The position numbers were made by a program, and so were the translations under genes. Shown piece after piece: positions 5,140 to 54,359 of a stretch of DNA of 64,000 bases. The notes below the pieces were generated by a model. It saw nothing but the letters and a program-made list of their open reading frames with translations. It ran no database searches and had not been told where the DNA came from. Origin of the DNA: Patescibacteria group bacterium (GTDB lineage Bacteria; Patescibacteriota; Patescibacteriia; UBA9934); contig JBAZWW010000003.1 of the NCBI GenBank assembly GCA_041660165.1, positions 4,352-68,351 on the forward strand, read 5' to 3'. How positions within the stretch are numbered: the first letter of the stretch is position 1; each line of letters begins with the position of its first letter.

Positions 5140-7581
5140 TTAACGGCGCGGGCTCCTTCTTATCTCGGTAATCAATTGGGCGAACGATTTTCTCCGTAAA
5201 GCCAGGTTTGACGTAGCTACGTAGTACTCATTCGCGCCAAGAAGAAAAGAGTAGCGCCCTCGGCTATCCGTGAGTGTGGACTCGACAAGTTTATTATACC
5301 GCGGTTCAAAGAGCCGAACGACAACGTTCCCCAGCTGTGAGCGTGTAGCGGACTCAGTAACCAGACCCCAGCCCTTTGGCTTCTTTGGCCAGGCCAAGCG
5401 GATAGAAATAAAGAGCGAGAAAATCTGTACAATGAACATGACGACGGAGAACACGCTCGGCAACGTCAATACTACAAAAAGCGACAGCAAGACGCCGAGT
5501 GGGGACACGATCCGCTGGAAAACGCGAAAGAATCGTTTGAAGCGCAAACGGTTTTCGCCTTGAAACTGCGCTTTCGATGAAGGATCAAGAGGGATGTTCG
5601 CAGCTATCGTCGCATCCTTACTCGTCACACGGATAGCTTGCGTTGTATATACATCAAGAAAAGTGCCATCATCCTTCACGTTCGCAAGGTAAGCGCTTGG
5701 AAAGTTAAAACCGTTTTTTACCACCTTAATAATATATTCACCGGCCTCAGGAACAAACAGAAAATACTTACCTTCGGCGTTGGTAACCACGGATTTGATC
5801 AGCCGATTATCTGTCACTCGATAAAGTCTAACAATCGCCAGCTCAATGGGGATCTTGGTCATGGCGTTATAGACCACGCCAAAGTTTTTTCGTTTTCGCC
5901 TAGAGAATAAAAGCAATGGCGAGGTGATGAGATACTGAAGATACGCACCAAGGTTAAAGCTCGACGCCAGAATAATGGTAGATGAAACCGTAACGGCCGC
6001 GTTCACCGGCCCTGTAACGGTAGCCGTTGCCTGAGCCTCCGGAGACGCCAGCACGTCCGCCACGGCCTGCACAGCAACTGACGCCACCGCGCTTACGGCA
6101 GTTATTGCCTGAACCGCACCTACCGGCAGAATGGCAGAGACAACCGCCGGCACAACAGGAGCTATAGGAGGCACAATGGGAGGCGCCGGAATCTCCGCCA
6201 TTCGGCGCAACATAATTTGTCCGCCAAGAATCGTATTTCCCACAAAAATCGAGGCAGTCACTGACTCATAGCCATCGCGCTCAGCCACCAACGAATATTG
6301 CCCGTTTGGCGCATACCAACCAAAAGTGCCCCGCGCGGTTGATCGTTCGGGGTTCGCCTCTCCGTATTGCTGTGCATCAAAAAGAATCCTGGCTCCGCTG
6401 TCTATTCTATATGCGGTAACAATGACATTCTCTACCGGTACTTCCCGGCCGTCCTCCAGCGTCTCAAGCACGATTCCTGAACTTTGTGCATTGAGCGCAA
6501 TGGGTTCAATCTGCGTACCGCCGGCTTTTCTTGAAACAATAACATTGAGCACCTCATCAGCCCCGGGGGCAGTGATCATGCCGTCATACGTACCCGGACC
6601 TGATTGCGAAAGAACATACGTGGTATCCCCAACCATGACTGAAACCGCGGAGACTGCATCGGGACTTGAAACGGTCACCCGAACAATGGGCGAGGTTCCG
6701 GACAACACATTCACAGAGCCGTTAATGACCGGCAAGTTTAAACCGCCCGACGTCACGCTCACACCCACCTCAATCTGCGCGGTTGGAGTTCCGCCCCCCG
6801 GCGGAGGAGTGCTTGGACTTGGCGCCGGTGTGGGAGCAGGACCTGGCGCAGGGGCCGGAGCTGGTGCTGGTTCAGGCGCGGGGGCCGGAGGCGGTTCCGG
6901 CGGAGGAGGTTCTGGTACTGGTTCTGGAATTGGTTCTGGCGGGGGTGGGGGTGGAGGTGGAGGAGGTGGAGGCGGGAGAGAGTCGCCGGGAGGCGAAGGT
7001 GGAGACGCTACCGTCCCTGACACACCGGACGTCGATGCCGAAATAATCGGAATAGCGATTGACCCATTGTTAAGCGATGTTCCTGCAAGGTCAATGTAAT
7101 ACGTGCCAACCGTGGACGGATTTGTAATTCTATTTGCACCAGTTCCGGATGAGGATGCATTCGTACCAATTTCGATCGTAACCACATGGCCAGCCAATAC
7201 TGACCCTCCGTCTCCAGCGCAAACCGTTAGCGTAACAGTATTCGCCACCCGATCAATAGATACAGCCTCCGCGCCCGAACAATCAGGAGCCGTCGTCAGA
7301 TCCACGGCGTTATCCGCAACATCAACATCATCTTCAATGACAGAACTCACGGTGAAACCGCTTGGAAAAATAAGCGCGATGGTTTCACCGTCGTCCCATC
7401 CGGTAGCCAGCGTAAAAATAAATTTTTGATTCGAAAGCGCGCTCGTCACAAGCGTGCTCGGTTGCGAGGTTAAGGCCGAGACCGTAGCCGCACTCGCGAT
7501 CGACGAAAAAGAAAACATCCCGCTCATCAAAAAGACTGCGGAAAACAAAACAATAGCCACGCGCTTGAAATAGCCACCCAC
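5140..7581 (-). CDS. Secreted/membrane-anchored protein with poly-proline linker and three transthyretin/CarboxypepD_reg-like beta-sandwich modules
   Basis: 813-aa ORF with signal peptide (MGGYFKRVAIVLFSAVFLMSGMFSFSSIASAATV). It has a run of more than 12 Pro followed by PEPxPAP repeats, and C-terminal TM segments. Motifs such as VTAYRIDSGARILFDAQ...YSLVAERDGYE and VRLYRVTDNRLIKSVVTNAEGKYF are typical of carboxypeptidase-regulatory-like domains. Confidence 0.75.
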   Translation of the reverse strand: MGGYFKRVAIVLFSAVFLMSGMFSFSSIASAATVSALTSQPSTLVTSALSNQKFIFTLATGWDDGETIALIFPSGFTVSSVIEDDVDVADNAVDLTTAPDCSGAEAVSIDRVANTVTLTVCAGDGGSVLAGHVVTIEIGTNASSSGTGANRITNPSTVGTYYIDLAGTSLNNGSIAIPIISASTSGVSGTVASPPSPPGDSLPPPPPPPPPPPPPEPIPEPVPEPPPPEPPPAPAPEPAPAPAPAPGPAPTPAPSPSTPPPGGGTPTAQIEVGVSVTSGGLNLPVINGSVNVLSGTSPIVRVTVSSPDAVSAVSVMVGDTTYVLSQSGPGTYDGMITAPGADEVLNVIVSRKAGGTQIEPIALNAQSSGIVLETLEDGREVPVENVIVTAYRIDSGARILFDAQQYGEANPERSTARGTFGWYAPNGQYSLVAERDGYESVTASIFVGNTILGGQIMLRRMAEIPAPPIVPPIAPVVPAVVSAILPVGAVQAITAVSAVASVAVQAVADVLASPEAQATATVTGPVNAAVTVSSTIILASSFNLGAYLQYLITSPLLLFSRRKRKNFGVVYNAMTKIPIELAIVRLYRVTDNRLIKSVVTNAEGKYFLFVPEAGEYIIKVVKNGFNFPSAYLANVKDDGTFLDVYTTQAIRVTSKDATIAANIPLDPSSKAQFQGENRLRFKRFFRVFQRIVSPLGVLLSLFVVLTLPSVFSVVMFIVQIFSLFISIRLAWPKKPKGWGLVTESATRSQLGNVVVRLFEPRYNKLVESTLTDSRGRYSFLLGANEYYVATSNLALRRKSFAQLITEIRRSPRR

Positions 7582-16454: not shown

Positions 16455-19097
16455 TCATTCAATCTCCCCCCATCTCTTTCCAGTAGCCGTATCAACTACA
16501 AGCGGGATTTCCAGCCTTACTACGTCAGCCATCAGCTTTGGTACCTCGGCTTTCACGGCCTCAACGTCATCATGGTGAACTTCGAACACGAGTTCATCAT
16601 GCACCTGAAGGAGCATCTTCACGCGCAGTTTGCTTGATCTGATCCATTTATCAATTTTGATCATGGCCATTTTGATGATGTCTGCGTTTGTTCCCTGAAC
16701 CGGCATGTTCATGGCCATTCTTTCACTCGACGCAACCAGCTGGGGCATGCCCGATTGAATATCCGGCAAGTATCTCCTTCGACCGAACATCGTCTCGACA
16801 TATCCATCAACTCGCGCCTTCATCTTCGACGCATCAATAAACGCAGCGATGCCCGGATGGACCGCAAAGTATCTGTCGATGAAGTCCTTCGCTTCTTCAT
16901 AGCTCATGCCGATCCGGCGAGACAATGCTCGCGCACCTACGCCGTAAAGAATTGAAAAATTCGTGGCCTTCGCCGCCTCGCGCTGTTCCTTTGTCACCTT
17001 GTCTTCGTCGATGCCGAGAATATCGGCCGCGGTTCGGCGATGGATGTCAGCTCCTTCCTTAAAGGCTTTCAAAAATGGCTCGTCTTGGGCGAGCACAGCC
17101 GCAAGTCGAAGCTCAATCTGCGAATAATCGGCCGAGAGAAGTACATATCCTCGATCAGCAATGAAGGCGCTCCGGATCTCACGTCCAAGCTCAGACCGGA
17201 CCGGAATGTTCTGCACGTTCGGATTCATTGAGGACAAGCGTCCAGTAGCGGCAACGGTTTGGTTAAACGTCGTGTGAATTCTGCCATCCTTCGCCACAAG
17301 TTGTGGCAGGGAATCAGCGTAAGTGCTCTTGAGCTTCGCGATCTCTCGGTACTCGCCGACAAGCGGAATGATCTCATGCTCGTCCTCAAGTTTTTCAAGC
17401 TCTGGCGCCGCCGTCGAAAATCCGGTCTTCGTCTTCTTGATACCCTTCGTCGGCAAGCCGAGGTCTATGAACAAAATGTCAGCGAGTTGAGAAGGGGATT
17501 GGATGTTGAAATCCCTACCAGCGAGCTTATGAATCTTCGTTGTCAGCTTGCCGAGGGTTTTCTCAAACTCGCTTGAAAGCGAAACAAGCTTTTCCTGATC
17601 AACCGCGATGCCATCAAGCTCCATCTGGAACAACACCGGGATCAACGGCATTTCAATCTCCTCGAAAAGTTTCTGCATCCCCTCAGCCTTCACTTTCTTT
17701 TCAAGTTTTTCTTTTAAATGAATCAGGTGCGGAGCAAGCTCGTCAATCGGCGCATCCTCGGTTAGCTGTTGGCCGAGTGTCTCATTAATGACTTCGACGA
17801 ATGCAAGCTCGCGACCTCCTGGCGCCAAGAGATAGGCTGCCACCATAGTGTCGAAGATCGTTTTCGACCGAAGTTCGGCGAGCACATCAATGCCCATTTT
17901 CTGAAACACGTGATACGTAGCCTTGAGATCATGACCGATAATCATGTCCGCCCGCGAAAGCACCGCCATCACTCGCCGGGCTTCCTCCGCATTCACCTGA
18001 CTGCTCTTCCAATAGTGGTGCCCATCCGTCAGCACAATGCCGAGTGGCGATACCCCAAACAAATCCTGCTGTCCCTCCTGCAACAGAATCCCGATCTGCG
18101 AGAGATCAAGCTCGTTCAGCTCCTTCACGGCTTTTTTTCCGGCGGATCCGGGTCCGGCTTTGCCGAAAACTTTTTCAACTTTTTCAACTATCCCCGCCTC
18201 GCCCTTCTCGTCTCCCTTCTCCTCATATTTCTGAACGAGCTTCTTAAACTCAAGCCCTCGAAACAGCTCAAGCAATTTCTGCACATCCGCCGGTTTCATC
18301 TCGGATTCCTCGTACGAAAACTCAGGAATTTTCATGTCGCGCACGATCGTTACCATCTTGCGCATGAGCTCGACATTTTTCTCCTGGCCATGAAACTTCT
18401 TTTCATACCTATGTTGCAACATGCCCTCATGAAGCGCCTTCATGATCCCATCAACAGTTTTGTAGGACGACAAAAGCTCGCCGGCACCCTTCTCACCTAT
18501 CCCCTCGATCCCTGGCAAGTTATCGGATGTGTCGCCGATCAAGGTTTTCAAGTCGATCAACTGGTTCGGATTCAAGTTATATCTACTCTGCACTGCCGTT
18601 ACGTCGTATAATTTCACCTCGGACAAACCTTTGACGAAGAAAACAACCTTCGTATTCGGTGAGACGAGTTGCAACGCATCAAGGTCACCGGTCACGATCA
18701 AGGTATCAATATCGCCCCGTTCCTCATTCATCGCCGAGACGGTGCCAAGGATGTCATCGCCCTCAAATCCTTTGACTGAAAGTGAAGGAATTCCGTACGC
18801 CGTAAGAATTTCCTGAATAATCGGAATCTGTGCGTACAATTCGTCCGCTTTCTTCTCTCGATGCGCCTTGTACGGCGCATAAGCAACGTTGCGAAACGTT
18901 CCACCCGGCAAATCCCAAGCCACAGCCATGTAATCCGGCTTGTAAGCACCGAGCATTTTCTCGATAACATTGGTAAAACCGTAAACGGCATTGACCACTC
19001 GACCATCCGCGGTCGTTAGTGGGGGAATGGCGTGCCAGGCTCGATGTAAGAGTGCATTACCGTCCAGAATCAAAAATGTTTTTCGTGGGTTTGACAT
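16455..19097 (-). CDS. polA: DNA polymerase I
   Basis: 880 aa. 5'-3' exonuclease N-terminus (FLILDGNALLHRAWHAIP), a 3'-5' exonuclease-like middle region, and family A polymerase motifs (RRTAADILGI...KATNFSILYG, QVHDELVFEV). Confidence 0.9.
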   Translation of the reverse strand: MSNPRKTFLILDGNALLHRAWHAIPPLTTADGRVVNAVYGFTNVIEKMLGAYKPDYMAVAWDLPGGTFRNVAYAPYKAHREKKADELYAQIPIIQEILTAYGIPSLSVKGFEGDDILGTVSAMNEERGDIDTLIVTGDLDALQLVSPNTKVVFFVKGLSEVKLYDVTAVQSRYNLNPNQLIDLKTLIGDTSDNLPGIEGIGEKGAGELLSSYKTVDGIMKALHEGMLQHRYEKKFHGQEKNVELMRKMVTIVRDMKIPEFSYEESEMKPADVQKLLELFRGLEFKKLVQKYEEKGDEKGEAGIVEKVEKVFGKAGPGSAGKKAVKELNELDLSQIGILLQEGQQDLFGVSPLGIVLTDGHHYWKSSQVNAEEARRVMAVLSRADMIIGHDLKATYHVFQKMGIDVLAELRSKTIFDTMVAAYLLAPGGRELAFVEVINETLGQQLTEDAPIDELAPHLIHLKEKLEKKVKAEGMQKLFEEIEMPLIPVLFQMELDGIAVDQEKLVSLSSEFEKTLGKLTTKIHKLAGRDFNIQSPSQLADILFIDLGLPTKGIKKTKTGFSTAAPELEKLEDEHEIIPLVGEYREIAKLKSTYADSLPQLVAKDGRIHTTFNQTVAATGRLSSMNPNVQNIPVRSELGREIRSAFIADRGYVLLSADYSQIELRLAAVLAQDEPFLKAFKEGADIHRRTAADILGIDEDKVTKEQREAAKATNFSILYGVGARALSRRIGMSYEEAKDFIDRYFAVHPGIAAFIDASKMKARVDGYVETMFGRRRYLPDIQSGMPQLVASSERMAMNMPVQGTNADIIKMAMIKIDKWIRSSKLRVKMLLQVHDELVFEVHHDDVEAVKAEVPKLMADVVRLEIPLVVDTATGKRWGEIE

Positions 19098-21606: not shown

Positions 21607-22344
21607 ATGAATACAGTCTCTTCTCTCACTAAAGTTGGGCTCAGCCAAAATGAGGCCAAGATCTATCTGTGTCTCCTTAAAATCATTGAGGGAACGGCTT
21701 TTCAGATTGCCAAACGCGCCGATATCCCTAGAACCACAGTCTATGCATCACTCGAATCGCTAAAAGCGCAGGGCCTAGTAACCTCCTTCAGGAAAAACAA
21801 CGTTTTCTATTTCACTGCTGAAAATCCAAAACAAATTCTCACCATTCTCCGCCACAAACAAGAAATAATGAATGAATTACTGCCGTCTCTGCAGGCTTTA
21901 TCAGTAGGCACGGATATCCAGCCCTCAGTAAAAATGTTTACCGGAACGCAAGGCCTGAAACTGGCCTTTGAAGACATTTTAGAAACTCTCAAAAGTACGG
22001 GTGAAAAAGTGTTGTATGCGGCCGCCTATCCGGATGTCATGGACGCCTTGCCAAAGTACTATCACGAATGGGTCAAACGAAGAGAAAAACTCGACGTGAC
22101 TACAAAAATGATCTTGCCGGAATCTGCGCGTGACAGGACAAACTTCTATGAAGGCCATAATCGCCAGGTACGGTTCATGCCAGAACCATATCTCTTCCAA
22201 TGCGCCATGGATATTTACGCCCACAAAATAGTCTACTTCGCTACCAAAGAAGGCCAAACGTATTCAATAATTCTTGAGTCCCCAATCATTGCCGATGCGT
22301 TCCTGCAATTCTTTCTCTTCGCCTTTGATCATCTCCCGCAATAA
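21607..22344 (+). CDS. TrmB-family HTH transcriptional regulator (paralog 2)
   Basis: LTKVGLSQNEAKIYLCLLKIIEGTAFQIAKRADIPRTTVYASLESLKAQGLV; 245 aa. Confidence 0.65.
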   Translation: MNTVSSLTKVGLSQNEAKIYLCLLKIIEGTAFQIAKRADIPRTTVYASLESLKAQGLVTSFRKNNVFYFTAENPKQILTILRHKQEIMNELLPSLQALSVGTDIQPSVKMFTGTQGLKLAFEDILETLKSTGEKVLYAAAYPDVMDALPKYYHEWVKRREKLDVTTKMILPESARDRTNFYEGHNRQVRFMPEPYLFQCAMDIYAHKIVYFATKEGQTYSIILESPIIADAFLQFFLFAFDHLPQ

Positions 22345-22418: not shown

Positions 22419-22493
22419 GCCCTGGTAGCTCAACGGATAGAGCGGGGCTCTTCTAAGGCCATGATGTTGGTTCGATTCCAACCCGGGGCACCA
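22419..22493 (+). tRNA. tRNA-Arg (anticodon TCT)
   Basis: GCCCTGGTAGCTCAACGGATAGAGCGGGGCTCTTCTAAGGCCATGATGTTGGTTCGATTCCAACCCGGGGCACCA. Anticodon loop CTTCTAA, T-loop TTCGATT, acceptor GCCCTGG/CCGGGGC, encoded CCA. Confidence 0.75.
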
Positions 22494-22533
22494 ATAGTGC
22501 ACAAAAGTAAAAGTCTCCCAAATCGGGAGACTT

Positions 22534-22863
22534 TTATGTTAACTGGAGCATCTTCTTTAATCGAGAATCCACGCCCTGCATAAGTGTTGGCTCAATCTGC
22601 CCCAATTCCCCAAGGACAATCTTCTTCTGAAGCGTGGCTAGTTTATTAACCTTGATGACCGAATCCTTTTTGAGTCCATTCGAACGTGTTGCTTTGATCC
22701 TTAAATCAAACGCCCCCAATTTAGCCTTTTGGATAGAGGAAATGAATGACACGATACAATCGTCGCCAGTCTTCTGCTCATAAAGGACTACGCAGGGGCG
22801 AACTTTATTCCCCGAAAGATCAGTGAACGGAAACGGAACGAGGACAATGGTTCCTTTAAGCAT
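22534..22863 (-). CDS. mazF: Type II toxin, PemK/MazF family mRNA interferase
   Basis: MLKGTIVLVPFPFTDLSGNKVRPCVVL matches the MazF/PemK N-terminal signature; 109 aa. It overlaps the upstream antitoxin by 8 nt. Confidence 0.75.
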   Translation of the reverse strand: MLKGTIVLVPFPFTDLSGNKVRPCVVLYEQKTGDDCIVSFISSIQKAKLGAFDLRIKATRSNGLKKDSVIKVNKLATLQKKIVLGELGQIEPTLMQGVDSRLKKMLQLT

Positions 22864-23107
22864 ATCTCTTCTTCAAATCCGCCACCGAGTACAACTCCGG
22901 CTCTTCCTGCAAAAAATCAAAGCTCCTGGACGCAGTGTTGATATTCGTAATCTCATTAACATCCTTGTTGTAGTAGCTTGGAAATTGAATCACGAGCGCG
23001 TCAATTGAGTGACGCCTACCAATGCCGAATACTTCGCCGTGCGTTTTTACGCGGTCAATGATGTGGCTCATCTGTTTCCTGGCGTTTGTAGTCGTCACAA
23101 CGTGCAT
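22856..23107 (-). CDS. Phd/YefM-like antitoxin
   Basis: Internal start MHVVTTTNARKQMSHIIDRVKTHGEVFGIGRRHSIDALVI resembles Phd/YefM; 83 aa. It is immediately upstream of, and overlapping, mazF. Confidence 0.55.
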   Translation of the reverse strand: MHVVTTTNARKQMSHIIDRVKTHGEVFGIGRRHSIDALVIQFPSYYNKDVNEITNINTASRSFDFLQEEPELYSVADLKKRYA

Positions 23108-23222
23108 ATGTACAAATTGTACAAAATGAATGCAAATCACACAAGATGTTGGCGAATCTCGCATAAAATCAACAGCGGCCGGGAATTCGTTCCCGACCGC
23201 TGATAGTTTGTCTACCCGTTTC

Positions 23223-24199: not shown

Positions 24200-24961
24200 G
24201 TGGCTAAAATAGAGCTAAAATCAGCCCTTATATCGCTGGGCGTTACGGAACAGGAGACTGAGGTCTATTTAGCGCTGGCCGAGCTTGGAGCATGTACCAG
24301 CGGGCCGATTATTGAAAAAACTGGCCTGCACAGAAATGTTGTCTACACGGCGCTAGAACACTTAATCGCTCGCAAATTCGTCCTCGAATCCCAAGTAAAA
24401 GGTAAAAAACAGTTTGTAGTGGCTGATCCGACTGTCATTTCTACAGAATTCTCGCAAAAAGCCGAGATAGCCCGTGATGTGGCACTCGGAATTCAGACCC
24501 TCGCCAAACGCCAGAGGCAGGAAATCTCCGTGCATGAGGGAAATGAGGAATACCTCGCGCTGTTAGCCAGGCTGATTCGCGAACTGCCTCGAGGTGCCAC
24601 CAAGTACGTCCTTGGCACCGGCGGGGAAGCATTCATGGCCCTAACCATGCGTCCCATTTGGCGCAAATATCACAAAGTAGCCAAAGAGCAGGGGATTAAG
24701 ATCAAAATGATTGCATATGAGTCACAAAGGGCCGCGCTTGAACAGGATGTAACAAAAGAGGGGATCTATGAGGTGCGCTATCTGCCAGACGAAATTGAGA
24801 ATCCTTCCGGCGTTCATATCTACCCAGAAGCGAACACCATGCTGAACATAATTTACTCAACTACTGAACAACCTGTAACCGCCATTCGCATAAAAAATCC
24901 CGACCTTGTCCAAGGACAGCTCAACCTGTTCAAAAATCTTTGGAAGACGGCCAAGCCCTAG
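24200..24961 (+). CDS. TrmB-family HTH transcriptional regulator (paralog 3)
   Basis: LGVTEQETEVYLALAELGACTSGPIIEKTGLHRNVVYTALEHLIARKFV; 253 aa. Its end overlaps the convergent TIM-barrel gene by 4 nt. Confidence 0.65.
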   Translation: MAKIELKSALISLGVTEQETEVYLALAELGACTSGPIIEKTGLHRNVVYTALEHLIARKFVLESQVKGKKQFVVADPTVISTEFSQKAEIARDVALGIQTLAKRQRQEISVHEGNEEYLALLARLIRELPRGATKYVLGTGGEAFMALTMRPIWRKYHKVAKEQGIKIKMIAYESQRAALEQDVTKEGIYEVRYLPDEIENPSGVHIYPEANTMLNIIYSTTEQPVTAIRIKNPDLVQGQLNLFKNLWKTAKP

Positions 24962-25659
24962 CCTGCTCTCAAGTACCCCGTTATATATTCAAACTCCGTC
25001 TTCACCTCTTCAATGGCGTCAAACGTACTTTCAATAACCATCGGCACGTCGAGCTGTTTAGCGTAATCAAGGATGATCAGCTGTTGTGTTTGATAAAGCG
25101 GTTCGTGATAGCCCGCGTATCCGCTGATGTGCAGTTGTTTGATGCGGGCGCGGAACTCGGCGATAAATTCGTCAGCAAGTTTCATTGAGGGGTCGTTAGA
25201 AAAACAATGATTGAGGTCAAGAACCATGCCCCATGAATCATTCTCCTCAAAAAACTTTTTCAAGTCATCAACATTCTTAAAAGCCTTGTTTCGACAATCC
25301 ATGTTTTCCGCCGAGAAATTCATCGGATACTGACCGAATAACTCGGTGCTATCAATGAGATCCGGGTGTACAACAACGAGCTCAGCACCAATTGCTTGAT
25401 ACAACTCAAATGCCTTATCAAGCACGGCCTTTGTAACATCATCATTCGCGTAACGAACATCAGACGGCAGATGGATGGACGTTCTTGGATACTGTTTAGC
25501 AAACGGCGCAACCTCCATAAGCCGTTCTCCTTCCGCCAAATTGTTCCAACAAATCTCCAGCAATTCGCTCCCGCTCTTGGCATAGGCCTCAAACGCCCGC
25601 GGAGAAAACTTATCCGGTAGTCTATACAACGCCCCGTGAGTAAAGCCAATTTTCGGCAT
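24958..25659 (-). CDS. Sugar phosphate isomerase/epimerase (xylose-isomerase-like TIM barrel)
   Basis: 233 aa with VVHPD, LDLNHCF and LHISGYAGYHEPL metal-site-like motifs typical of the AP-endonuclease-2/xylose-isomerase TIM fold. It is the last gene of the HD / AlaRS-like / TIM-barrel operon. Confidence 0.6.
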   Translation of the reverse strand: MPKIGFTHGALYRLPDKFSPRAFEAYAKSGSELLEICWNNLAEGERLMEVAPFAKQYPRTSIHLPSDVRYANDDVTKAVLDKAFELYQAIGAELVVVHPDLIDSTELFGQYPMNFSAENMDCRNKAFKNVDDLKKFFEENDSWGMVLDLNHCFSNDPSMKLADEFIAEFRARIKQLHISGYAGYHEPLYQTQQLIILDYAKQLDVPMVIESTFDAIEEVKTEFEYITGYLRAG

Positions 25660-25670
25660 AAGAATGTTGA

Positions 25671-26807
25671 CTATCTTGTTGAAGCAATTTTATCTGCTAA
25701 CGTTTCTTTAATATATTCACGCTTTGCTTCAAACTCAGGAAATAGTACCCCAAAAAGATCAATCGCATTATCTGTCAGATTGGCAATGGTGACCGGCGAG
25801 TTGCGGAGCGACAACCGTTCGGCGCTATTATTAAAATTACGTATATATTTGTTAAATAGATACTTGCGGCTCCGATTTTTACTGCCGTGAAGTTCGCATA
25901 CCCCGTCATGCACTAAAAATACCAGTCCGCGGATATGGTCACACATAATGATCGCTTCTCTGTGAAGTTCTGGAGGAACAACCCCAAGCTGTCCCTTGAG
26001 ATTGTCGAGTATTGAAATATCGCCGATATCGGCAACCTGTTCAAATATTCTCATCAAACGTTGAGGCCCGAAACCTGCAGCAATGGCTGATTGGCTCATA
26101 GGCGTCAAGTCAAAATGCGATTCGCCGGTTTTGGTTTTCGTCACGCTGACCTCAAGGCTGTAAAGAACGTGGGTAAAAAACTCAAGCACTCCGCCTGTCT
26201 GTTCCGCAGCCCAAAATTCTGCCGGTGTTAATGCAATGCGCGATTCCTGCAAATCATAAAAGAATTCGCACCGCGGACCGCCAACAGGTTCAACCGTATT
26301 CGCCACAAAGCATTCCATCGGCGCACTGAGAAGCGTAGGAATGATGTGATCTGCTTGAAAACCAAGCGAAAGCAAAATGTCCCGCACTTCGTTATCAGGT
26401 TCAAAGGCGATGCCCTTGATCTCACCCCCGGCAAAATATGTGGCGTAGATTCTTGAGGCATCAAGATGGAGCTGTTTCGTAAAGAATTCTAAAAAGTGCC
26501 CAAGAACTTCAGTGCGAGTGAACCCGCCAATGCTATCGGCAACAAACATATTAAAAAATGATAGATGCTTACCGTCTCCCGTCAAATCAATATCCCAATG
26601 CCGGATACATGGCTGATTAACAATGTGGTTCCCCTGCAAAGAAGTATCACCACGCCAAAATTTATAGGCCAAATCAGGACCACCGCTCATGGTAAATGTT
26701 GTGGGGAAAATAGAAGAAACCAATTTCTCCCTCTCGCGGACTGCGTACCCCTTGGCAATCATGAAATTCTGAAACTGGAGATGAAGCTGGTAAAAATCAT
26801 TTTTCAT
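25671..26807 (-). CDS. Alanyl-tRNA synthetase catalytic-domain-only paralog (class II AlaRS core without tRNA-binding, editing or C-Ala domains)
   Basis: 378 aa that align along the AlaRS N-terminal catalytic domain. FQNFMIAKGYAV matches FLDFFxSKGH. NQPCIRHWDIDLTGDGKHLSFFNMF matches TSQRCVRxxDxxxVGxTxRHHTFFEMLGNFSFGDY. RIYATYFAGGE matches RLWVTVYExDDE. GGPRCEFFYD matches GPCGPCTEIFYDH. GFGPQRLMRIF matches GMGLERL. MCDHIRGLVFLVHDGV matches ADHIRAxAFLIADGV. Confidence 0.75.
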   Translation of the reverse strand: MKNDFYQLHLQFQNFMIAKGYAVREREKLVSSIFPTTFTMSGGPDLAYKFWRGDTSLQGNHIVNQPCIRHWDIDLTGDGKHLSFFNMFVADSIGGFTRTEVLGHFLEFFTKQLHLDASRIYATYFAGGEIKGIAFEPDNEVRDILLSLGFQADHIIPTLLSAPMECFVANTVEPVGGPRCEFFYDLQESRIALTPAEFWAAEQTGGVLEFFTHVLYSLEVSVTKTKTGESHFDLTPMSQSAIAAGFGPQRLMRIFEQVADIGDISILDNLKGQLGVVPPELHREAIIMCDHIRGLVFLVHDGVCELHGSKNRSRKYLFNKYIRNFNNSAERLSLRNSPVTIANLTDNAIDLFGVLFPEFEAKREYIKETLADKIASTR

Positions 26808-26907: not shown

Positions 26908-28395
26908 CTAATCGTTCTTGGCGTGGATGAGGTCATTCGCCAGACGGATAGCGGATTCGCGGACGGTGCGCGTGGGCACCAGCGGGGAACGGGGGACTTC
27001 CATGTAGAGCCGGACCATGCTCGCTTCTTGATCACGGAGCGTACACATGATGGCGGACTCTTGGAACCAGGTGGATTCCGCAGTCGAACAGCTGTACTTG
27101 CTCTCCGCATCGAATCCCACCAGGTACGAACCCTTCTCAATGTCCTTCATGGCCCGAAGCGGACGCCGATCCATAATGAAATGGATCTCCGGATACTGCT
27201 TCTGTAGTCCCTCCAGGAGCGGGCCACAGAGCCAGGTCTCTCTGGCCTTGAAGGCCCATACCCGCTTCCATAGCTTTCGTTCCTGAATCAATCTGGCCAG
27301 CTCAGAGATCCGTTCATTCGCCGGAAAGCCGGGTCGAAGAGTCCCCGTCAGCAGGCCCAGAAACATTTCATCGCCCAAGAAGAGGTAACTCTCCGTGAAC
27401 GAATCCAAACTTTCCATGTTCACTGGAGTGAGGCCCTGCCGGGTTGCCTCTTCTCCAATGGTCTGGAGCATGAGCTCCGCGGCTCGGTTGGTCTTGTTAA
27501 AATAGAACCCGCGGAACATCTGGAACCTCCCCCAGATGAAGGTCTCAATGGCTGAGAGTCCGCTTTCCCGCCAGCCCAGGCGGTAGCAGTCAGCTCCATC
27601 TGCATCGCGCACACAGAGCGCGGACTTGAGAATGCGGTGCTGATCGTAGTGTCCGCAGGTCACACCCGTAGCCCGCGAGTCCCGCAACAGGTAGTCCATA
27701 CGGTCCGCGTCCACTGGCGCAGAACTCACCATGTCCCGAATGAACGGGATCCACGGCCGGAGCTCTTCCGGCACGTTGAGGGCGTCCTCTCCAAGAAGAA
27801 CGGAAGCCACCACTCGGGGCATCCATTCATCTCCGCCAACATCGTTCCAAATGCAGGCGAACATGATGACGGACACCGTCTCATGGTGGACTCGGCCGGA
27901 CTTGGAAGCGATCAGCACGTTGCGGTACGGCGCGATTGCTTTGAGTCGAGGGTCATCCAGCACGCGATCGACGTCCTTCACGCTGGGCGCAAAGGCGTCA
28001 AAATTGTGGGACAACGGCCCGTGTCCCAGGTCATGCACGAGCGCGCACAGCCTGAGTACCCGGCGGATCTGCGCGTACTCCGCGGGCGGGAGATCAGCCA
28101 GACAAACCGCCTGTCCCGGCTTTGCATCCCGGAGCGCATAGAGCTTCCCGCGGATCTTCACGGATTCCCGATTGACCGCCTTCAGGATCCTGTTCGCCAT
28201 GGCCATCGTTCCCACTGAATGTTCAAACCGCGTGTGAACCGCGGACGGGAACACCAGGTGGAGCAGGCCGGTCTGACGAATATGCTTCATGCGCTGGAAA
28301 AGGCTGTGATCAATCACCGCCATCTCTTCATCAGTGAGATTCACAATACCGTGCAGACTATCCACGATAGTCCGCGATAGAACAAACAGACCCAT
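26908..28395 (-). CDS. HD-domain dGTPase/SAMHD1-like dNTP triphosphohydrolase family protein
   Basis: 495 aa. HTRFEHSVGTMAMANRI...LCALVHDLGHGPLSHNFD (HD motif) and VDADRMDYLLRDSRATGV (dGTPase-family signature). GC is about 60%, far above the flanking genes. Confidence 0.75.
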   Translation of the reverse strand: MGLFVLSRTIVDSLHGIVNLTDEEMAVIDHSLFQRMKHIRQTGLLHLVFPSAVHTRFEHSVGTMAMANRILKAVNRESVKIRGKLYALRDAKPGQAVCLADLPPAEYAQIRRVLRLCALVHDLGHGPLSHNFDAFAPSVKDVDRVLDDPRLKAIAPYRNVLIASKSGRVHHETVSVIMFACIWNDVGGDEWMPRVVASVLLGEDALNVPEELRPWIPFIRDMVSSAPVDADRMDYLLRDSRATGVTCGHYDQHRILKSALCVRDADGADCYRLGWRESGLSAIETFIWGRFQMFRGFYFNKTNRAAELMLQTIGEEATRQGLTPVNMESLDSFTESYLFLGDEMFLGLLTGTLRPGFPANERISELARLIQERKLWKRVWAFKARETWLCGPLLEGLQKQYPEIHFIMDRRPLRAMKDIEKGSYLVGFDAESKYSCSTAESTWFQESAIMCTLRDQEASMVRLYMEVPRSPLVPTRTVRESAIRLANDLIHAKND

Positions 28396-29195: not shown

Positions 29196-29271
29196 TGGGG
29201 TGGCTAACGGGAATTGAACCCGTACTAGAGGTACCACAAACCTCTGTGATAACCATTTCACCATAGCCACC
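29196..29271 (-). tRNA. tRNA-His (anticodon GTG) with genomically encoded G-1
   Basis: Reverse complement is G-GTGGCTATGGTGAAATGGTTATCACAGAGGTTTGTGGTACCTCTAGTACGGGTTCAATTCCCGTTAGCCACCCCA. Anticodon loop TTGTGGT, extra 5' G opposite discriminator C, T-loop TTCAATT, encoded CCA. Confidence 0.85.
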
Positions 29272-29433
29272 ATGACACGAACGGAGGCATGATAGCAGGG
29301 AAAAGGGGATAAATCAAGGCTTCATCCCGATGACAATACGCAATCGGTAATTGACGAAAACGTACTTACAAGGCACTCTCTCACGTCGATCGTCCACCGA
29401 TGACCGACCGATCCCCACGTTTCGGAGGTCACC

Positions 29434-29964
29434 ATGCTCGCACTCCTTCTGCTCGGTTCCGCGTTGGCCGGCGACACCTTTGTTCAGCTCCAGGCTGATA
29501 CGGCGGTCACCCTCGCTGATGGCGCGGTTGACGAGCGCGCTAAGGTGCTCATTGACGATCCGCTCAATAAGAAATGGAGCGTGAGCGTTTTCACGCTCGT
29601 AACGCCAAACTACGGCGAGCTCATCCTTGGGCCAACGCTTCACGTCAACGACTTCGCGCTCACCGTGAGCATCGGCATCGAAACTGCAGAGATGCCCCTG
29701 CGTGGCGAGTTCTCACTCTACTGGGCGCACCGTCATCTTGAAGTGCTCATCTCCGCTGAAACCGGCGGGTCAGGGCCATGGTACGTCAGCTTCGTGAAGG
29801 AACACATTGGATGCCTCACGGTCGGTATTCTCACCCAACGATTCGACGGCATTGGCCCGCGCATCGGCCTTGCGACGGACAGATCCGAATTCTGGATCTC
29901 GCCCATGTACGACTACGAGGACGGCGCGTTCAACATCCTAGCCGGTCTCAGCTGGACGCCGTAA
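29434..29964 (+). CDS. Secreted hypothetical protein (GC-rich, beta-rich)
   Basis: Strong RBS GGAGGTcaccATG. Signal peptide MLALLLLGSALAG. 176 aa with alternating hydrophobic pattern; about 62% GC. Confidence 0.45.
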   Translation: MLALLLLGSALAGDTFVQLQADTAVTLADGAVDERAKVLIDDPLNKKWSVSVFTLVTPNYGELILGPTLHVNDFALTVSIGIETAEMPLRGEFSLYWAHRHLEVLISAETGGSGPWYVSFVKEHIGCLTVGILTQRFDGIGPRIGLATDRSEFWISPMYDYEDGAFNILAGLSWTP

Positions 29965-30060
29965 CTACCGTGCCCGCAAACAAAGCCCCGACGGCGTTCG
30001 TCGGGGCTTTAATTATTTCAGTTGAATGATACTGAAAGACGCGCTACGCTTTAAAAAAGT

Positions 30061-30456
30061 ATGCTGCACATCAAGTATAAACTTGCCCCCTCAATACATC
30101 ACGGCATCGGTCTTTTTGCCGATCAAAATATACAAAAGAATCAGCTGATTTACTCGGCCAGCCCGTTGCTCGACGTTAATATCTCTCCCGAAGAATTCAG
30201 TAAATTATCGCTCTCGGAACAAGCCGAGATTTCGTATTGGGGTTTTCTCGATAAACAATCTGGCCTTTGGCACGTTGATTTTGATGTTTCAAAATTTATC
30301 AATCACTCTTCAGCGCCAAATATCACGCAAGATCCTATCTCAACAGAAACTCGCCTCATTGCCCTAAAAGACATTTCCGCCGGCGAGGAACTGACGCAAA
30401 ACTATCTTGAATTTGAAACAAAAGAAGATCTGAAGAGAAGAGGGATCAGTACTTAA
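30061..30456 (+). CDS. SET-domain protein (putative protein-lysine methyltransferase)
   Basis: 131 aa. INHSSAPN matches the SET NHSCxPN motif and GEELTQNY matches GEELTxxY; preceded by a GIGLFA-like N-SET segment. Confidence 0.6.
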   Translation: MLHIKYKLAPSIHHGIGLFADQNIQKNQLIYSASPLLDVNISPEEFSKLSLSEQAEISYWGFLDKQSGLWHVDFDVSKFINHSSAPNITQDPISTETRLIALKDISAGEELTQNYLEFETKEDLKRRGIST

Positions 30457-31298
30457 CCTTTTAACTTTTTCTGCTTAGGCGGGAGCTGGCCGATTTTTCG
30501 GCGAACAAGGTCTTTAATGTGCTCTTGGGCTGGCCGGTCTTCAGGCATGGGGGCATTTAATTTTTGGATGGTCTCACGGACGGCCTGTCCAACCTTAAAG
30601 TGCGTGTAGCTAGCGGGATCTTCGCCTGTAATACCATCTCTTATTAGTAATTCGTTGGTCTGAGTGATGCGGAAAAGATTGGCTGCTAACTCAGCCGACC
30701 CGGCAAAATCTAAAATATCACCCTCACTAATTCCTTTCTTCTTGCGAATATCGCTTGCCGTTAGTCCGTAAAGACCAACGTAGCCAAAATTATTGAACTT
30801 CCCGAAATTTTCTACACCGGCATCTTTAGCGGTTCTAAATAACCGATTATTATGCGAAGCCACCTGACGTCTTATCTGCAACCGATTCCCATCGTCATCA
30901 ATCACCTCTAATAGCTCTTGCTTCCTGGTCTGCACAGCAAAATATGTTTGCGCAAAAGCGATCTCGGGCTTTCGAGGATCACCATTTTGAGCAATTAGAT
31001 AACAAGCAAAGCGGGAAAGCTGATAATCAATAATCTTACGCCTCGCCTCTCTCGGCGTGTTTTTGCCAATGATTATCATTTTCGGGTCGACCCGAAAATG
31101 ATCCTCAAGCGACTGACTCGTACTAGCACAAACTGCTTGGGCCCGACGAATAGTCTTATGGAAGTCCTCCCATCTCGAATAATCGAGTAATGACATCAAC
31201 TCCCTGGCCTCCCAATATTCAAAACCCTGCTCATCTACCTTCTTAATTGACTCAAAATCCTTATGTAACGAAACCGGCACAATGGCATTGTTCGGCAT
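30453..31298 (-). CDS. dinD: DNA-damage-inducible protein D family protein
   Basis: EYWEARELMSLLDYSRWEDFHKTIRRAQAVC...DHFRVDPKMIIIG...LSRFACYLIAQNGDPRKPEIAFAQTYFAVQTRKQEL closely follows the E. coli DinD N-terminal domain; 281 aa. Confidence 0.7.
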   Translation of the reverse strand: MPNNAIVPVSLHKDFESIKKVDEQGFEYWEARELMSLLDYSRWEDFHKTIRRAQAVCASTSQSLEDHFRVDPKMIIIGKNTPREARRKIIDYQLSRFACYLIAQNGDPRKPEIAFAQTYFAVQTRKQELLEVIDDDGNRLQIRRQVASHNNRLFRTAKDAGVENFGKFNNFGYVGLYGLTASDIRKKKGISEGDILDFAGSAELAANLFRITQTNELLIRDGITGEDPASYTHFKVGQAVRETIQKLNAPMPEDRPAQEHIKDLVRRKIGQLPPKQKKLKG

Positions 31299-31363
31299 AT
31301 GTTCGTATCATACGACGAACAAATTTTGTCGCAAAACGGTTTGTACACACCAAAAAAGCGCCT

Positions 31364-32290
31364 CTATTTCTTTTTTTTGTCGTGGAACTCTTTGTACACG
31401 CGCCCCAGCTCTTTATCCGTAATATGGGTATACACCTGCGTCGTCGTAATCGACTCGTGTCCAAGCAATGATTGCACCGCGCGAATATCGGCGCCGTTTC
31501 GCAGTAAGTCTGTAGCGTAAGTATGTCGCAACGTGTGCGGGGTTACGCGTTTAGTGATCCCCGCTTCTCGAGCGTAGCGATCGACGATCCGCTGAACCGA
31601 GCGGGGAGTGAGCGGTTGGGCGCTCGCCGAAGAACGTCGAGCTCGATCATGCCGTACAAAAAGATAAGGCGAGGTGTCCTTGCGATGATCGAGATACGCC
31701 TTAATCGAACGCTTGGCATCGTCCGACAAGTAGACAATGCGATGTTTCTTGCCTTTGCCGAGCACCGTGAACTCATCCCGTTTCAAATTGATATTTTCGA
31801 TCTTCAAAGTCGAAGCCTCGGACACGCGCATACCGGTCGAAAACAAAAGCTCGAGCATGGCCTTGTCGCGATAACCAACAATGGTTGGGTCGTTCAACGG
31901 GCCGGCGCGAAATCTTTCGAACTCGTCGGCTTCGAGAAAACTCACATGCCTGGTGCCTTGTTTCGCGAGTTCGATCTTCTCAGCAGCCATGCTCTTAATA
32001 TCTCTCTTCGCGAGGTACTTCAGGAACGCTCGCAAAGCGATCAGGTGATAATTTTGCGTATTCTTTTTCAAATTCGCTTCCTCTCGCCCCGCAATGTCTC
32101 GGTTCAAATGAAGCCGGTACTTCCGCACCATTTCCTGCGTAATCTCCTGCGGATTGGGATGCTTGGCCCAATCCGAAAACCTGCTCAGATAAAAATGGTA
32201 ATTTTTCACCGTCTTATCCGACCGCCCACGCTCGATCTCCAGGTACTCAAGAAATTCTTTAATGTATTTGGCAAGTATGTTCTTTGGCAT
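31364..32290 (-). CDS. Tyrosine-type site-specific recombinase/integrase (XerC/XerD-like)
   Basis: 308 aa. N-terminal SAM-like core-binding domain. Catalytic motifs GMRVSEASTL (R), HTLRHTYATDLLRNGADIRAVQSLLGHESITTTQVYTH (H-x-x-R...Y). Confidence 0.85.
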   Translation of the reverse strand: MPKNILAKYIKEFLEYLEIERGRSDKTVKNYHFYLSRFSDWAKHPNPQEITQEMVRKYRLHLNRDIAGREEANLKKNTQNYHLIALRAFLKYLAKRDIKSMAAEKIELAKQGTRHVSFLEADEFERFRAGPLNDPTIVGYRDKAMLELLFSTGMRVSEASTLKIENINLKRDEFTVLGKGKKHRIVYLSDDAKRSIKAYLDHRKDTSPYLFVRHDRARRSSASAQPLTPRSVQRIVDRYAREAGITKRVTPHTLRHTYATDLLRNGADIRAVQSLLGHESITTTQVYTHITDKELGRVYKEFHDKKKK

Positions 32291-54283: not shown

Positions 54284-54359
54284 TGGAGGCCGCGGCCGGG
54301 GTTGAACCGGCGCATAAGAGTTTTGCAGACTCCCGCGTTAACCACTTCGCCACGCGGCC
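54284..54359 (-). tRNA. tRNA-Cys (anticodon GCA)
   Basis: Reverse complement is GGCCGCGTGGCGAAGTGGTTAACGCGGGAGTCTGCAAAACTCTTATGCGCCGGTTCAACCCCGGCCGCGGCCTCCA. Anticodon loop CTGCAAA, U73 discriminator typical of Cys, encoded CCA. Confidence 0.8.

Follow-up and report, generated by a model that had tools for sequence, protein, structure and literature searches.

Alanyl-tRNA synthetase (AlaRS) is considered to be among the most evolutionarily stable, single-copy synthetases (PMC5388404), and what a shortened relative of it might do is the question raised by one gene in a 64,000-nucleotide stretch of a Patescibacteria metagenome-assembled genome (MAG; contig JBAZWW010000003.1, positions 4,352 to 68,351; the whole stretch is hereafter called the window). 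The initial annotation of this gene proposed a truncated AlaRS paralogue that could not be the housekeeping alaS and that might act as an amino-acid:carrier or amino-acid:nucleoside ligase, or as a regulatory or defence protein. We find that the protein is a true AlaRS homologue with the AlaRS fold, and that it belongs to a clade in which the ATP side of the active site is kept and the alanine side is replaced. The reading that we favour, tentatively, is that of an ATP-dependent enzyme that would activate an acid other than alanine and act on a tRNA, possibly tRNA-Cys. The gene and its two parts are as follows.

25671..26807, minus strand: AlaRS-like gene, an intact ATG-to-TAG open reading frame (ORF) of 378 amino acids plus stop
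26058..26807, minus strand: class II catalytic core, residues 1-250, placed by family and profile alignments
25674..26057, minus strand: helical domain, residues 251-378, the first half of the AlaRS tRNA-recognition ('ATL') domain

The homology proposed by the initial annotation was borne out by domain profiles, deposited sequences and fold. PF01411, the class II AlaRS core, matches residues 11-371 (E=7.4e-23; profile positions 5-352 of 552) and is the sole Pfam domain detected in the protein, while fragments of AlaRS in the PDB are matched at E=7e-13. Both alaS models are matched below their cutoffs, TIGR00344 with E=8e-23 and 80.6 bits against an equivalog cutoff of 457, and NF002436 with 76.2 bits against 529. 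An AlphaFold2 model built from a 32-sequence family alignment (mean predicted local distance difference test score, pLDDT, 93.2; predicted template modelling score, pTM, 0.91) is confident through the last helix. With this model Foldseek retrieved AlaRS catalytic fragments from human, Escherichia coli, Aquifex aeolicus and others (4XEM, 3HXU, 1RIQ and 9JDN) at a template modelling (TM) score of ~0.8 and E values of 1e-22 to 1e-19, the next folds, bacterial GlyRS-alpha and then HisRS/AsnA, being weaker by far. An identical database protein (NCBI MFA5945764.1/MFA6591381.1, P0001 in our family numbering) carries the label 'MAG: alanine--tRNA ligase-related protein [Patescibacteria group bacterium]'.

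The extent of the match differs from what had been described. A residue-by-residue alignment with the first ~440 amino acids of AlaRS was an overstatement, since identity to AlaRS is ~20-24% and the alignment spans residues ~3-362 of the E. coli catalytic fragment, which has 441 residues. GFGPQR, which resembles motif 3, and the FFNMF segment do align with AlaRS GMGLER and FFEML, and the domain search of the 378-residue protein found neither an editing domain (tRNA_SAD) nor C-Ala, just as had been noted. The protein was also said to end where tRNA recognition begins; instead, residues ~250-378 form the first, helical half of that domain, including the helix aligned with E. coli N303, and only the distal, D400-bearing subdomain is missing. 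The architecture is thus a catalytic core followed by half of a tRNA-recognition domain.

What sets the protein apart from AlaRS is its active site. Family and AlaRS sequences were aligned in three ways (MAFFT, hmmalign and a family-profile search of deposited PDB sequences), with the numbering fixed by the E. coli chains 3hxu and 3hxz (the G237A mutant) and with 9jdn also aligned. The substrate pocket of E. coli AlaRS is made up of M43, R69, W170, N212, D235 and G237 (PMC12467997). Four of these six residues are replaced in every member of the clade (M43 by Gly, W170 by Val or Phe, N212 by Thr and D235 by Ala) and the other two, R69 and G237, are kept. In the window protein the diagnostic positions are encoded as follows, all on the minus strand.

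26601-26603, minus strand: R69, the motif-2 Arg, retained
26058-26060, minus strand: R250, the motif-3 Arg, retained
26172-26174, minus strand: T212 (E. coli N212), replaced pocket residue
26079-26081, minus strand: A243 (E. coli D235), replaced pocket residue
within 26058..26807, minus strand: G43 (E. coli M43) and F167/V168 (E. coli W170), replaced pocket residues

The change of D235 to Ala is supported by all three alignment methods and by the deposited E. coli chains. In AlaRS this active-site Asp is universally conserved and pins the alpha-amino group of alanine, and its replacement by Glu, Asn or Gln makes the enzyme far less efficient with alanine (PMC3158927). The AlaRS segment W-x-M-G-D-T-G-P-C-G-P-C has become an invariant F-V-A-N-x-V-E-P-V-G-G-P-R in the clade, which has also gained polar invariants of its own (W71, N170, E173, R179 and Y216). 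On the ATP and adenylate side, R69, the HxD that comes next, the F-F-x-M strand, E209, V214, G245 (E. coli G237) and R250 are invariant across the clade. A 31-column signature is identical in P0001-P0034, with R69, E209, R250, T212 and A243 all invariant. Among the active-site Arg, Asp, Trp and Gly residues whose conservation the initial annotation had proposed to check, the Arg (R69, R250) and Gly (G237) residues are therefore present, whereas Asp235 and W170 are gone.

Because all of the replacements go to smaller side chains, the pocket is likely larger than that of AlaRS, and we regard the alanine site as rebuilt and probably enlarged. Judged from the alignments, the ATP site has been preserved while the substrate site was rebuilt and is strictly conserved in its new form, a pattern that speaks for a change of substrate and a new specificity and not for decay. 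AlaRS activity is excluded by the family-wide replacement of Asp235 together with three other residues of the alanine pocket, and the protein is very probably not a housekeeping AlaRS. The conclusion of the initial annotation on this point holds, although its strongest reason is the replaced pocket and not the truncation: reduced AlaRS made up of catalytic and ATL parts is functional or proposed to be so, and truncation alone does not rule out AlaRS activity. Since the tRNA-Ala of the window retains the G3:U70 identity pair, a canonical AlaRS is implied elsewhere in the genome, encoded outside the window. A tblastn search of the whole window in any frame with a true small-AlaRS returned only the AlaRS-like gene and no similarity to the AlaRS C-terminus, and an 880-residue ORF at 16455-19097, considered as a full-length alaS, is DNA polymerase I.

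The helical half of the protein bears on whether a tRNA is its partner. Residues 251-378 align with E. coli residues ~245-362, the model is all-helical from residue 248, and the chain stops near E. coli residue 362-368, short of D400. The most conserved element in this half is a very basic helix, KNRSRKY (GSKNRSRKYLFNKYIRNF in the window protein), and the net charge across residues 300-335 is +5. Within the helix, N311 aligns with E. coli N303 (Met-1 numbering), which in AlaRS reads U70 of the G3:U70 pair together with D400 as the second reader of that pair (PMC10036535). We infer from this alignment that acceptor-stem binding is retained and that specificity for G3:U70 is lost.

The window protein has many relatives of the same shape. 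A word-indexed protein search found 46 of them, and an exhaustive search through 1.84 billion cluster representatives with a family profile yielded 175 matches below 1e-30, which were sorted by diagnostic alignment columns into four groups. One holds true AlaRS (signature EENVMDGGR, 590-880 residues). The second is the clade of the window protein, marked by W71, FVANxxEP, R179, T212, Y216 and A243 and comprising ~55-60 representatives at 50% identity, mostly of 340-420 residues. The third, the 'EENLIEVGR' clade, shows Asp changed to Glu, as reported for the AlaRS-like aminoacyltransferase AcmF, and the fourth is an 'ERxDH' clade of ~360 residues. Three members of the EENLIEVGR clade (P0060, P0063 and P0055) have tandem AlaRS-like domains, and in P0060 and P0063 (1448-1488 residues) these are fused to GAF and HATPase_c histidine-kinase modules, which suggests that in this clade an AlaRS core was recruited as a sensory input domain. 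Truncated AlaRS-like proteins are a broader phenomenon, largely uncharted in the literature that we found, and our literature searches returned no paper describing the clade of the window protein.

Members of this clade are clearly rare and patchily distributed. When one genome from each of 185,579 species was scanned for peptide patterns, 11 clade loci came up, a lower bound given that the scan relies on exact peptide patterns; the hosts were Patescibacteria, Nanoarchaeia and other archaea, Acidobacteriota, Nitrospira, Bacteroidales, Omnitrophota and two short, doubtfully binned contigs. The clade thus spans the candidate phyla radiation (CPR), DPANN, Acidobacteriota, Nitrospira and others. 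In one Nanoarchaeia MAG (L018, 7992-12552) the family gene lies ~1 kb from an archaeal 23S/16S rRNA operon, and some members are therefore truly archaeal and not mis-binned. No members were found on viral contigs in IMG/VR. The window protein itself sits in the crown group of the clade, beside members linked to tRNA-Cys and to TrmB-like genes.

These links emerged from 49 collected loci, ~34 of them independent after de-replication, whose neighbouring ORFs were clustered all-against-all. In four independent loci a tRNA-Cys(GCA) gene abuts the family gene on the same strand, at a distance of 4-13 nt, in the following arrangements.

L009: tRNA-Cys ending in CCA, 7 nt, ATG; tRNA 5' of the gene
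L006: tRNA-Cys, ~13 nt, ATG; tRNA 5' of the gene
L014, a distant, basal member: stop, 9 nt, tRNA-Cys; tRNA 3' of the gene
L026: stop, 4 nt, tRNA-Cys; tRNA 3' of the gene

No other tRNA isotype abuts a family gene on the same strand in the loci collected. Of the tRNAs encoded on the same strand within 20 nt of a family gene, four out of four are thus tRNA-Cys, as against 1/17 of the other tRNAs of the loci and the window (Fisher p = 8e-4, in a test that ignores shared ancestry). The arrangements differ, with the tRNA upstream in some loci and downstream in others, and the tRNA-Cys and TrmB links span the clade tree. The adjacent tRNAs are themselves ordinary (GCA anticodon, U73, 3:70 either C:G or A:U, no G3:U70), and the idea of a special tRNA-Cys was rejected.

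A second signal comes from the protein architecture. A YbaK-type domain is fused at the C-terminus in three protein clusters (P0011, P0021 and P0022), and in L011 it is encoded as a separate gene 27 bp downstream of the family gene. It matches best the YbaK/EbsC family of Cys-tRNA(Pro)/Cys-tRNA(Cys) deacylases (TIGR00011, E=1e-23), and two of the three YbaK fusion loci also have an adjacent tRNA-Cys. To our knowledge, the only known job of a YbaK-type domain is the hydrolysis of aminoacyl-tRNA.

Two further associations concern regulators and transport. A TrmB-like helix-turn-helix (HTH) protein of ~250 residues is encoded near the family gene in six independent loci, the window included, and in L009, L016, L020, L038 and L043 its gene lies directly upstream in divergent orientation. 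In L001 and L023 an XRE-HTH gene precedes the family gene by 4 bp, and P0032-34 have a MerR/excisionase-type HTH fused N-terminally. In seven independent basal loci a gene for a Liv-type periplasmic amino-acid-binding protein lies upstream of the family gene with a 4-bp overlap.

Basal Liv loci: L015, L017, L019, L033, L034, L036 and L048 (Acidobacteriota, Nitrospira, others)

The gene order in these basal loci is parts of a Liv-type ABC importer, the binding protein, in some cases a B12-binding radical SAM protein, the AlaRS-like gene and a protein of 330-1040 residues without a Pfam domain. Such an operon has the look of a cluster for biosynthesis or modification that depends on an amino acid and has yet to be characterised. 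Neighbour clustering across the ~34 loci found no carrier-protein neighbour, which leaves the earlier suggestion of an amino-acid:carrier ligase unsupported; nor did these loci contain a nucleoside-sulfamate biosynthetic cluster. Rfam scans for a riboswitch, T-box or leader upstream of the gene returned nothing beyond tRNAs.

Taken together, these observations suggest a working model. We consider it probable that the protein is catalytically active and forms an adenylate, and that its substrate is not alanine. It would use ATP to form an acyl-adenylate of an acid other than L-alanine, probably a bulkier amino acid or an acid resembling one, which in the basal subclade may arrive via the Liv-type binding protein encoded directly upstream. 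The acyl group would then be moved to the 3' end of a tRNA held by the basic KNRSRKY helix. The intact ATP site, the retention of a helix that faces the acceptor stem and the fusion to a domain that hydrolyses aminoacyl-tRNA are the reasons for preferring a tRNA-linked acyl-activating enzyme, and a tRNA acceptor has, in our estimate, a little under an even chance. The best candidate acceptor would be tRNA-Cys, because two independent signals agree on it, namely the tRNA gene next door and the family to which the editing domain belongs; its specific role is nevertheless doubtful. In one subclade the YbaK-type proofreading domain, fused or following, would act on the product, and expression or activity would probably be coupled to a TrmB-like HTH protein (elsewhere an XRE or fused MerR-like one). 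That the ~34 loci share no other conserved partner is as expected, because the partners of such an enzyme (ATP, an amino acid and a tRNA) are universal.

A bolder version of this model is that the clade is an AlaRS-derived synthetase that acylates tRNA-Cys, either as a class II route to Cys-tRNA-Cys or as a loader of a non-canonical or precursor residue, in which case the product of one subclade would be proofread by a dedicated YbaK-type domain. We think this decidedly unlikely. A precedent for two structural classes of one synthetase exists in LysRS.

Several observations weigh against the tRNA-linked model, and above all against its tRNA-Cys part. Only four of the ~34 independent loci have an adjacent tRNA-Cys and the window is not among them; three of these four belong to related crown lineages and are not fully independent. 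Locus L047, examined as a prospective test of the tRNA-Cys link, was positive, but it has the same sequence as L026 and was discounted, and the fusion locus L046 is without tRNA-Cys. The YbaK-type domain scores 84 bits against an equivalog cutoff of 153, and its best PDB relative is the uncharacterised archaeal YbaK-like protein APE2540. At least one fusion-bearing genome encodes a canonical class I cysteinyl-tRNA synthetase (CysRS) 7 kb away, so that the AlaRS-like enzyme there adds to CysRS and does not replace it. The subdomain of the tRNA-recognition domain that bears D400 is absent. Finally, the alpha-amino anchor is gone, and the protein could possibly bind no amino acid at all. In the window, the tRNA-Cys gene is unlinked, ~27.5 kb from the AlaRS-like gene, and no YbaK-like sequence is present.

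54284..54359, minus strand: tRNA-Cys(GCA) with U73 and encoded CCA, a candidate acceptor by inference from the related loci

Other explanations of the clade have to be set against this model. First, the protein could be a transferase of the AcmF type, which would bind a charged tRNA (e.g. Cys-tRNA-Cys), without ATP activation, and pass the aminoacyl group to a small molecule or peptide lodged in the former ATP/alanine site. AcmF is a direct precedent, being a truncated AlaRS-like protein with a mutated Asn/Asp pair that takes Ala-tRNA-Ala as donor (PMC12945691), and the equivalent Asn and Asp are replaced in the clade too. The adjacency of tRNA-Cys would suit any tRNA-dependent enzyme, and the basal operons with B12-radical SAM and large unknown proteins look biosynthetic. 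Yet AcmF has reportedly lost most of its ATP-binding residues, whereas R69, E209, the FFxM strand and the motif-3 Arg are invariant in the clade, and the substitutions are not the same (D to A and N to T in the clade, D232E and N219Q in AcmF). The loci in CPR and DPANN are without biosynthetic neighbours, and proofreading by a YbaK domain in cis suits a producer of aminoacyl-tRNA better than a consumer. The amino-acid:nucleoside ligase of the initial annotation, which comes closest to this proposal, accordingly stays a live rival, though a weaker one than acyl activation on a tRNA, and we consider it unlikely.

Second, the protein could be a regulatory sensor similar to BirA or HisZ, which would sense a metabolite, ATP or tRNA charging, possibly via a bound adenylate, and act through a fused or partner HTH. 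An HTH is the commonest contextual feature of the family (TrmB-like in 6 loci, XRE in 2, fused in P0032-34), a sister AlaRS-like clade is fused to GAF/histidine-kinase modules, and a mechanism of the BirA type would be in keeping with the catalytic residues that are conserved. The window contributes to this picture through one gene.

24200..24961, plus strand: TrmB-family HTH protein of 253 residues (PF01978, E=1.5e-8)

This gene is convergent to the AlaRS-like gene, with a TIM-barrel gene in between, and encodes the sole protein-coding neighbour in the window that recurs beside family genes elsewhere; full-length homologues (~25% identity, E ~1e-13) occur in L016, L020, L038 and L043 and also in L009. 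It is one of a paralogous pair of TrmB-family HTH genes within 3 kb (21607-22344 and 24200-24961, 22% identity), and of the two only 24200-24961 groups clearly with the TrmB-like genes next to family members. Against a sensor speaks that most loci, many long contigs included, have no HTH partner, that TrmB-family genes are very common in CPR, where adjacency may partly reflect ordinary gene regulation, and that the YbaK fusions and the Liv/radical-SAM operons are left unexplained. The regulatory role put forward in the initial annotation is thus kept alive by the HTH fusions and neighbours, and in our judgement it holds a minor share of the likelihood.

Third, the protein could be an effector of defence or of a toxin-antitoxin system, a mobile enzyme that mis-acylates or sequesters tRNA on phage infection, with the HTH protein as antitoxin or regulator. 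This possibility is best judged in the light of the immediate surroundings of the gene.

24958..25659, minus strand: TIM-barrel protein of 233 residues, 11 bp downstream and co-directional (PF01261, AP_endonuc_2, E=7e-5, below cutoff)
26908..28395, minus strand: homologue of HD-domain deoxynucleoside triphosphate (dNTP) triphosphohydrolases (SAMHD1/EF1143-like) of 495 residues, 100 bp upstream and co-directional

The downstream protein, correctly called a TIM barrel before, has beside its weak PF01261 match a full-length match to the phage-defence candidate PDC-M70B of PADLOC (E=2.8e-27); no PDC-M70A partner was recognised near the gene, and the name PDC-M70 is absent from the searchable literature. 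It also has a weak CbiR-like match and no sequence relative in the PDB. The HD protein matches SAMHD1 and Enterococcus faecalis EF1143 in the PDB (E=1e-24 to 1e-15) and phrog_35128 (E=4e-59). An operon of the HD, AlaRS-like and TIM-barrel genes was considered and rejected, neither neighbour being present in any other family locus. Because of this, and because of the strongly different composition of the three genes (G+C content at third codon positions, GC3, of 0.71, 0.45 and 0.52, respectively), the two neighbours are regarded as incidental; a hairpin after the HD gene is no better than in shuffled sequence (z = -0.85). The GC3 of the AlaRS-like gene is the lowest of the region, in which housekeeping genes have 0.56-0.63, as would fit acquisition by horizontal transfer; by its composition the gene is foreign to the mosaic stretch of chromosome into which it is inserted.

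Elements of mobile or toxin type occur to either side. At 22419-23164 a gene for a MazF/PemK-type toxin (22534-22863) comes after a tRNA-Arg(TCT), and an overlapping 102-residue ORF upstream of the toxin gene (22856-23164) probably encodes the antitoxin; a sub-threshold Rfam match to Phe_leader (E=0.064) overlapping the tRNA-Arg is probably due to chance. At 29196-32290 lie a tRNA-His(GTG), a Bro-N protein (30453-31298; phrog_8036, E=5e-82; GC3 low at 0.46) and a tyrosine integrase (31364-32290), which may be what is left of an integrated element at the border of the mosaic region with the AlaRS-like gene. Bro-N is found in L049 as well, and a mobile-element backbone common to L049 and the window was rejected, with only the family gene homologous between them. 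Further away, dnaA (46617-48020) and dnaN (48300-49433) coincide with the minimum of cumulative GC skew at ~46-48 kb, so the window is chromosomal and spans the replication origin of this Patescibacteria MAG. A 1502-residue ORF on the minus strand at 591-5099 has no Pfam match at E <= 1e-5, the adjacent 813-residue ORF at 5140-7581 has carboxypeptidase-regulatory-like repeats only, and both are probably large CPR surface proteins.

A defence role thus gains from the patchy spread over distant phyla and the low GC3 in the window, which suggest horizontal transfer, from the XRE-HTH gene 4 bp upstream in L001/L023, which resembles a toxin-antitoxin layout, from the presence of MazF, the PDC-M70B TIM barrel, the SAMHD1-like dNTPase, Bro-N and the integrase in the region of the window gene, and from HicA and Bro-N near the family gene in L049. 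It loses by the lack of any match of the window protein to PADLOC-DB v2 at E <= 0.01, with the family likewise without a PADLOC match and none of its members on viral contigs, and by the housekeeping neighbourhoods of many loci (aminoacyl-tRNA synthetase genes, ABCE1/Pelota, RecQ, rRNA). The putative defence neighbours in the window are not conserved with the family gene, and a fused proofreading domain is hard to square with a toxin. The support for the defence role raised in the initial annotation is thus circumstantial, and we hold this role to be improbable.

Fourth, the protein could be a genuine minimal AlaRS, housekeeping or back-up, like the Tupanvirus mini-AlaRS or the CPR/DPANN small-AlaRS. 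Cores made up of catalytic and ATL parts can function (PMC10036535; bioRxiv 10.1101/2023.05.29.542759), CPR genomes are streamlined, and fold and ATP site are intact here. However, the equivalent of Asp235 is Ala in every member, with M43, W170 and N212 replaced too. A true small-AlaRS serving as internal control (P0047, 588 residues) keeps N212, D235 and the GPxGP segment and reaches 447 bits with PF01411, as opposed to 81 for the window protein, which likewise has 81 bits where the alaS cutoff is 457. The clade, found in Acidobacteriota, Nitrospira and Bacteroidales as well, is too sparse for a housekeeping gene, and the tRNA-Ala of the window has G3:U70, yet the D400 reader is missing from the protein. 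We regard a minimal AlaRS as most improbable.

Lastly, the gene could be a pseudogene, what remains at the 5' end of a full-length alaS after a frameshift or truncation. This has the truncation itself in its favour and nothing more, and has practically no likelihood left: >45 homologues from unrelated organisms stop within a few residues of the same position, an end point shared by ~60 homologue clusters, and no AlaRS-like sequence follows downstream, which refutes the frameshift; the next ORF, 11 bp on, is an unrelated TIM barrel. A continuation into 24958-25659 had already been thought unlikely in the initial annotation.

The tRNA-linked acyl-activating enzyme thus stays our preferred account, and several consequences would follow. 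An AlaRS core has survived as what appears to be an independent, horizontally spread enzyme, with four pocket residues replaced and the ATP site kept. The wiring to tRNA-Cys and to a domain of the Cys-tRNA deacylase type turns its function into a concrete and cheaply testable hypothesis, namely which acid and which tRNA. If true, it would add a new synthetase-like activity to the CPR and DPANN, groups in which little is understood of translation and of the economy of amino acids, and would offer a compact (~380 residues), acceptor-stem-directed scaffold for engineering orthogonal tRNA acylation. If the regulatory account were true instead, the clade would be a further case of a synthetase fold recruited as a sensor.

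Comparison with known systems places the clade close to AlaRS in structure and apart from each known AlaRS-related enzyme in its details. With canonical AlaRS (E. coli 1-441, PDB 3HXU) it shares the fold at TM ~0.8, the motif-2 and motif-3 Arg, E209, V214 and G237, and, after the core, a helical domain in which an Asn aligns with N303, the reader of U70. It differs in its ~20-24% identity, its scores under the equivalog cutoffs, the D235A, M43G, W170V/F and N212T replacements, and the lack of the D400 subdomain, beta-barrel, editing domain and C-Ala. The small-AlaRS of CPR, DPANN and Asgard, which consists of catalytic, ATL and editing parts (bioRxiv 10.1101/2023.05.29.542759), and the Tupanvirus mini-AlaRS (PMC10036535) are likewise reduced AlaRS from the same kinds of organisms in which catalytic and ATL parts are self-sufficient; those enzymes keep the alanine pocket, whereas the clade does not and has a shorter recognition domain.

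Other parallels concern partners and context. BirA (biotin protein ligase and repressor) and HisZ are class II catalytic folds detached from translation that serve to ligate and regulate or only to regulate, and P0032-34 have an N-terminal HTH as BirA does; the lineage of the clade, however, is of the AlaRS/GlyRS-alpha type and not of the BirA or HisRS type, and the window protein lacks an HTH of its own and starts directly with the AlaRS N-terminal helix. The 'triple sieve' of ProRS with trans-editing by YbaK/ProXp (PMC6344894, PMC3973320) resembles the YbaK subclade in pairing a class II core with a deacylase of the INS/YbaK superfamily, although here the partner is AlaRS-like, the linked tRNA is tRNA-Cys and not tRNA-Pro, and the window protein has no YbaK domain. 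SerRS-like amino acid:carrier protein (aaCP) ligases differ from the clade in that its fold is of the AlaRS type and its genes have no carrier-protein neighbour.

A further parallel is with AcmF, the AlaRS-like aminoacyltransferase that depends on Ala-tRNA in the biosynthesis of ascamycin (Zheng et al., 2024; reviewed in PMC12945691). Both are stand-alone, truncated AlaRS-like proteins with aminoacylation and tRNA-recognition parts, and in both the alanine-binding Asn/Asp pair is mutated. Compared by description only, AcmF has reportedly lost most ATP-binding residues and carries N219Q/D232E, whereas the clade keeps those residues and has N to T and D to A. AcmF also belongs to a Streptomyces nucleoside-antibiotic cluster, a context without counterpart in the CPR and DPANN members of the clade. 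Even so, AcmF shows that the AlaRS scaffold can be repurposed for tRNA-linked chemistry besides the synthesis of Ala-tRNA-Ala.

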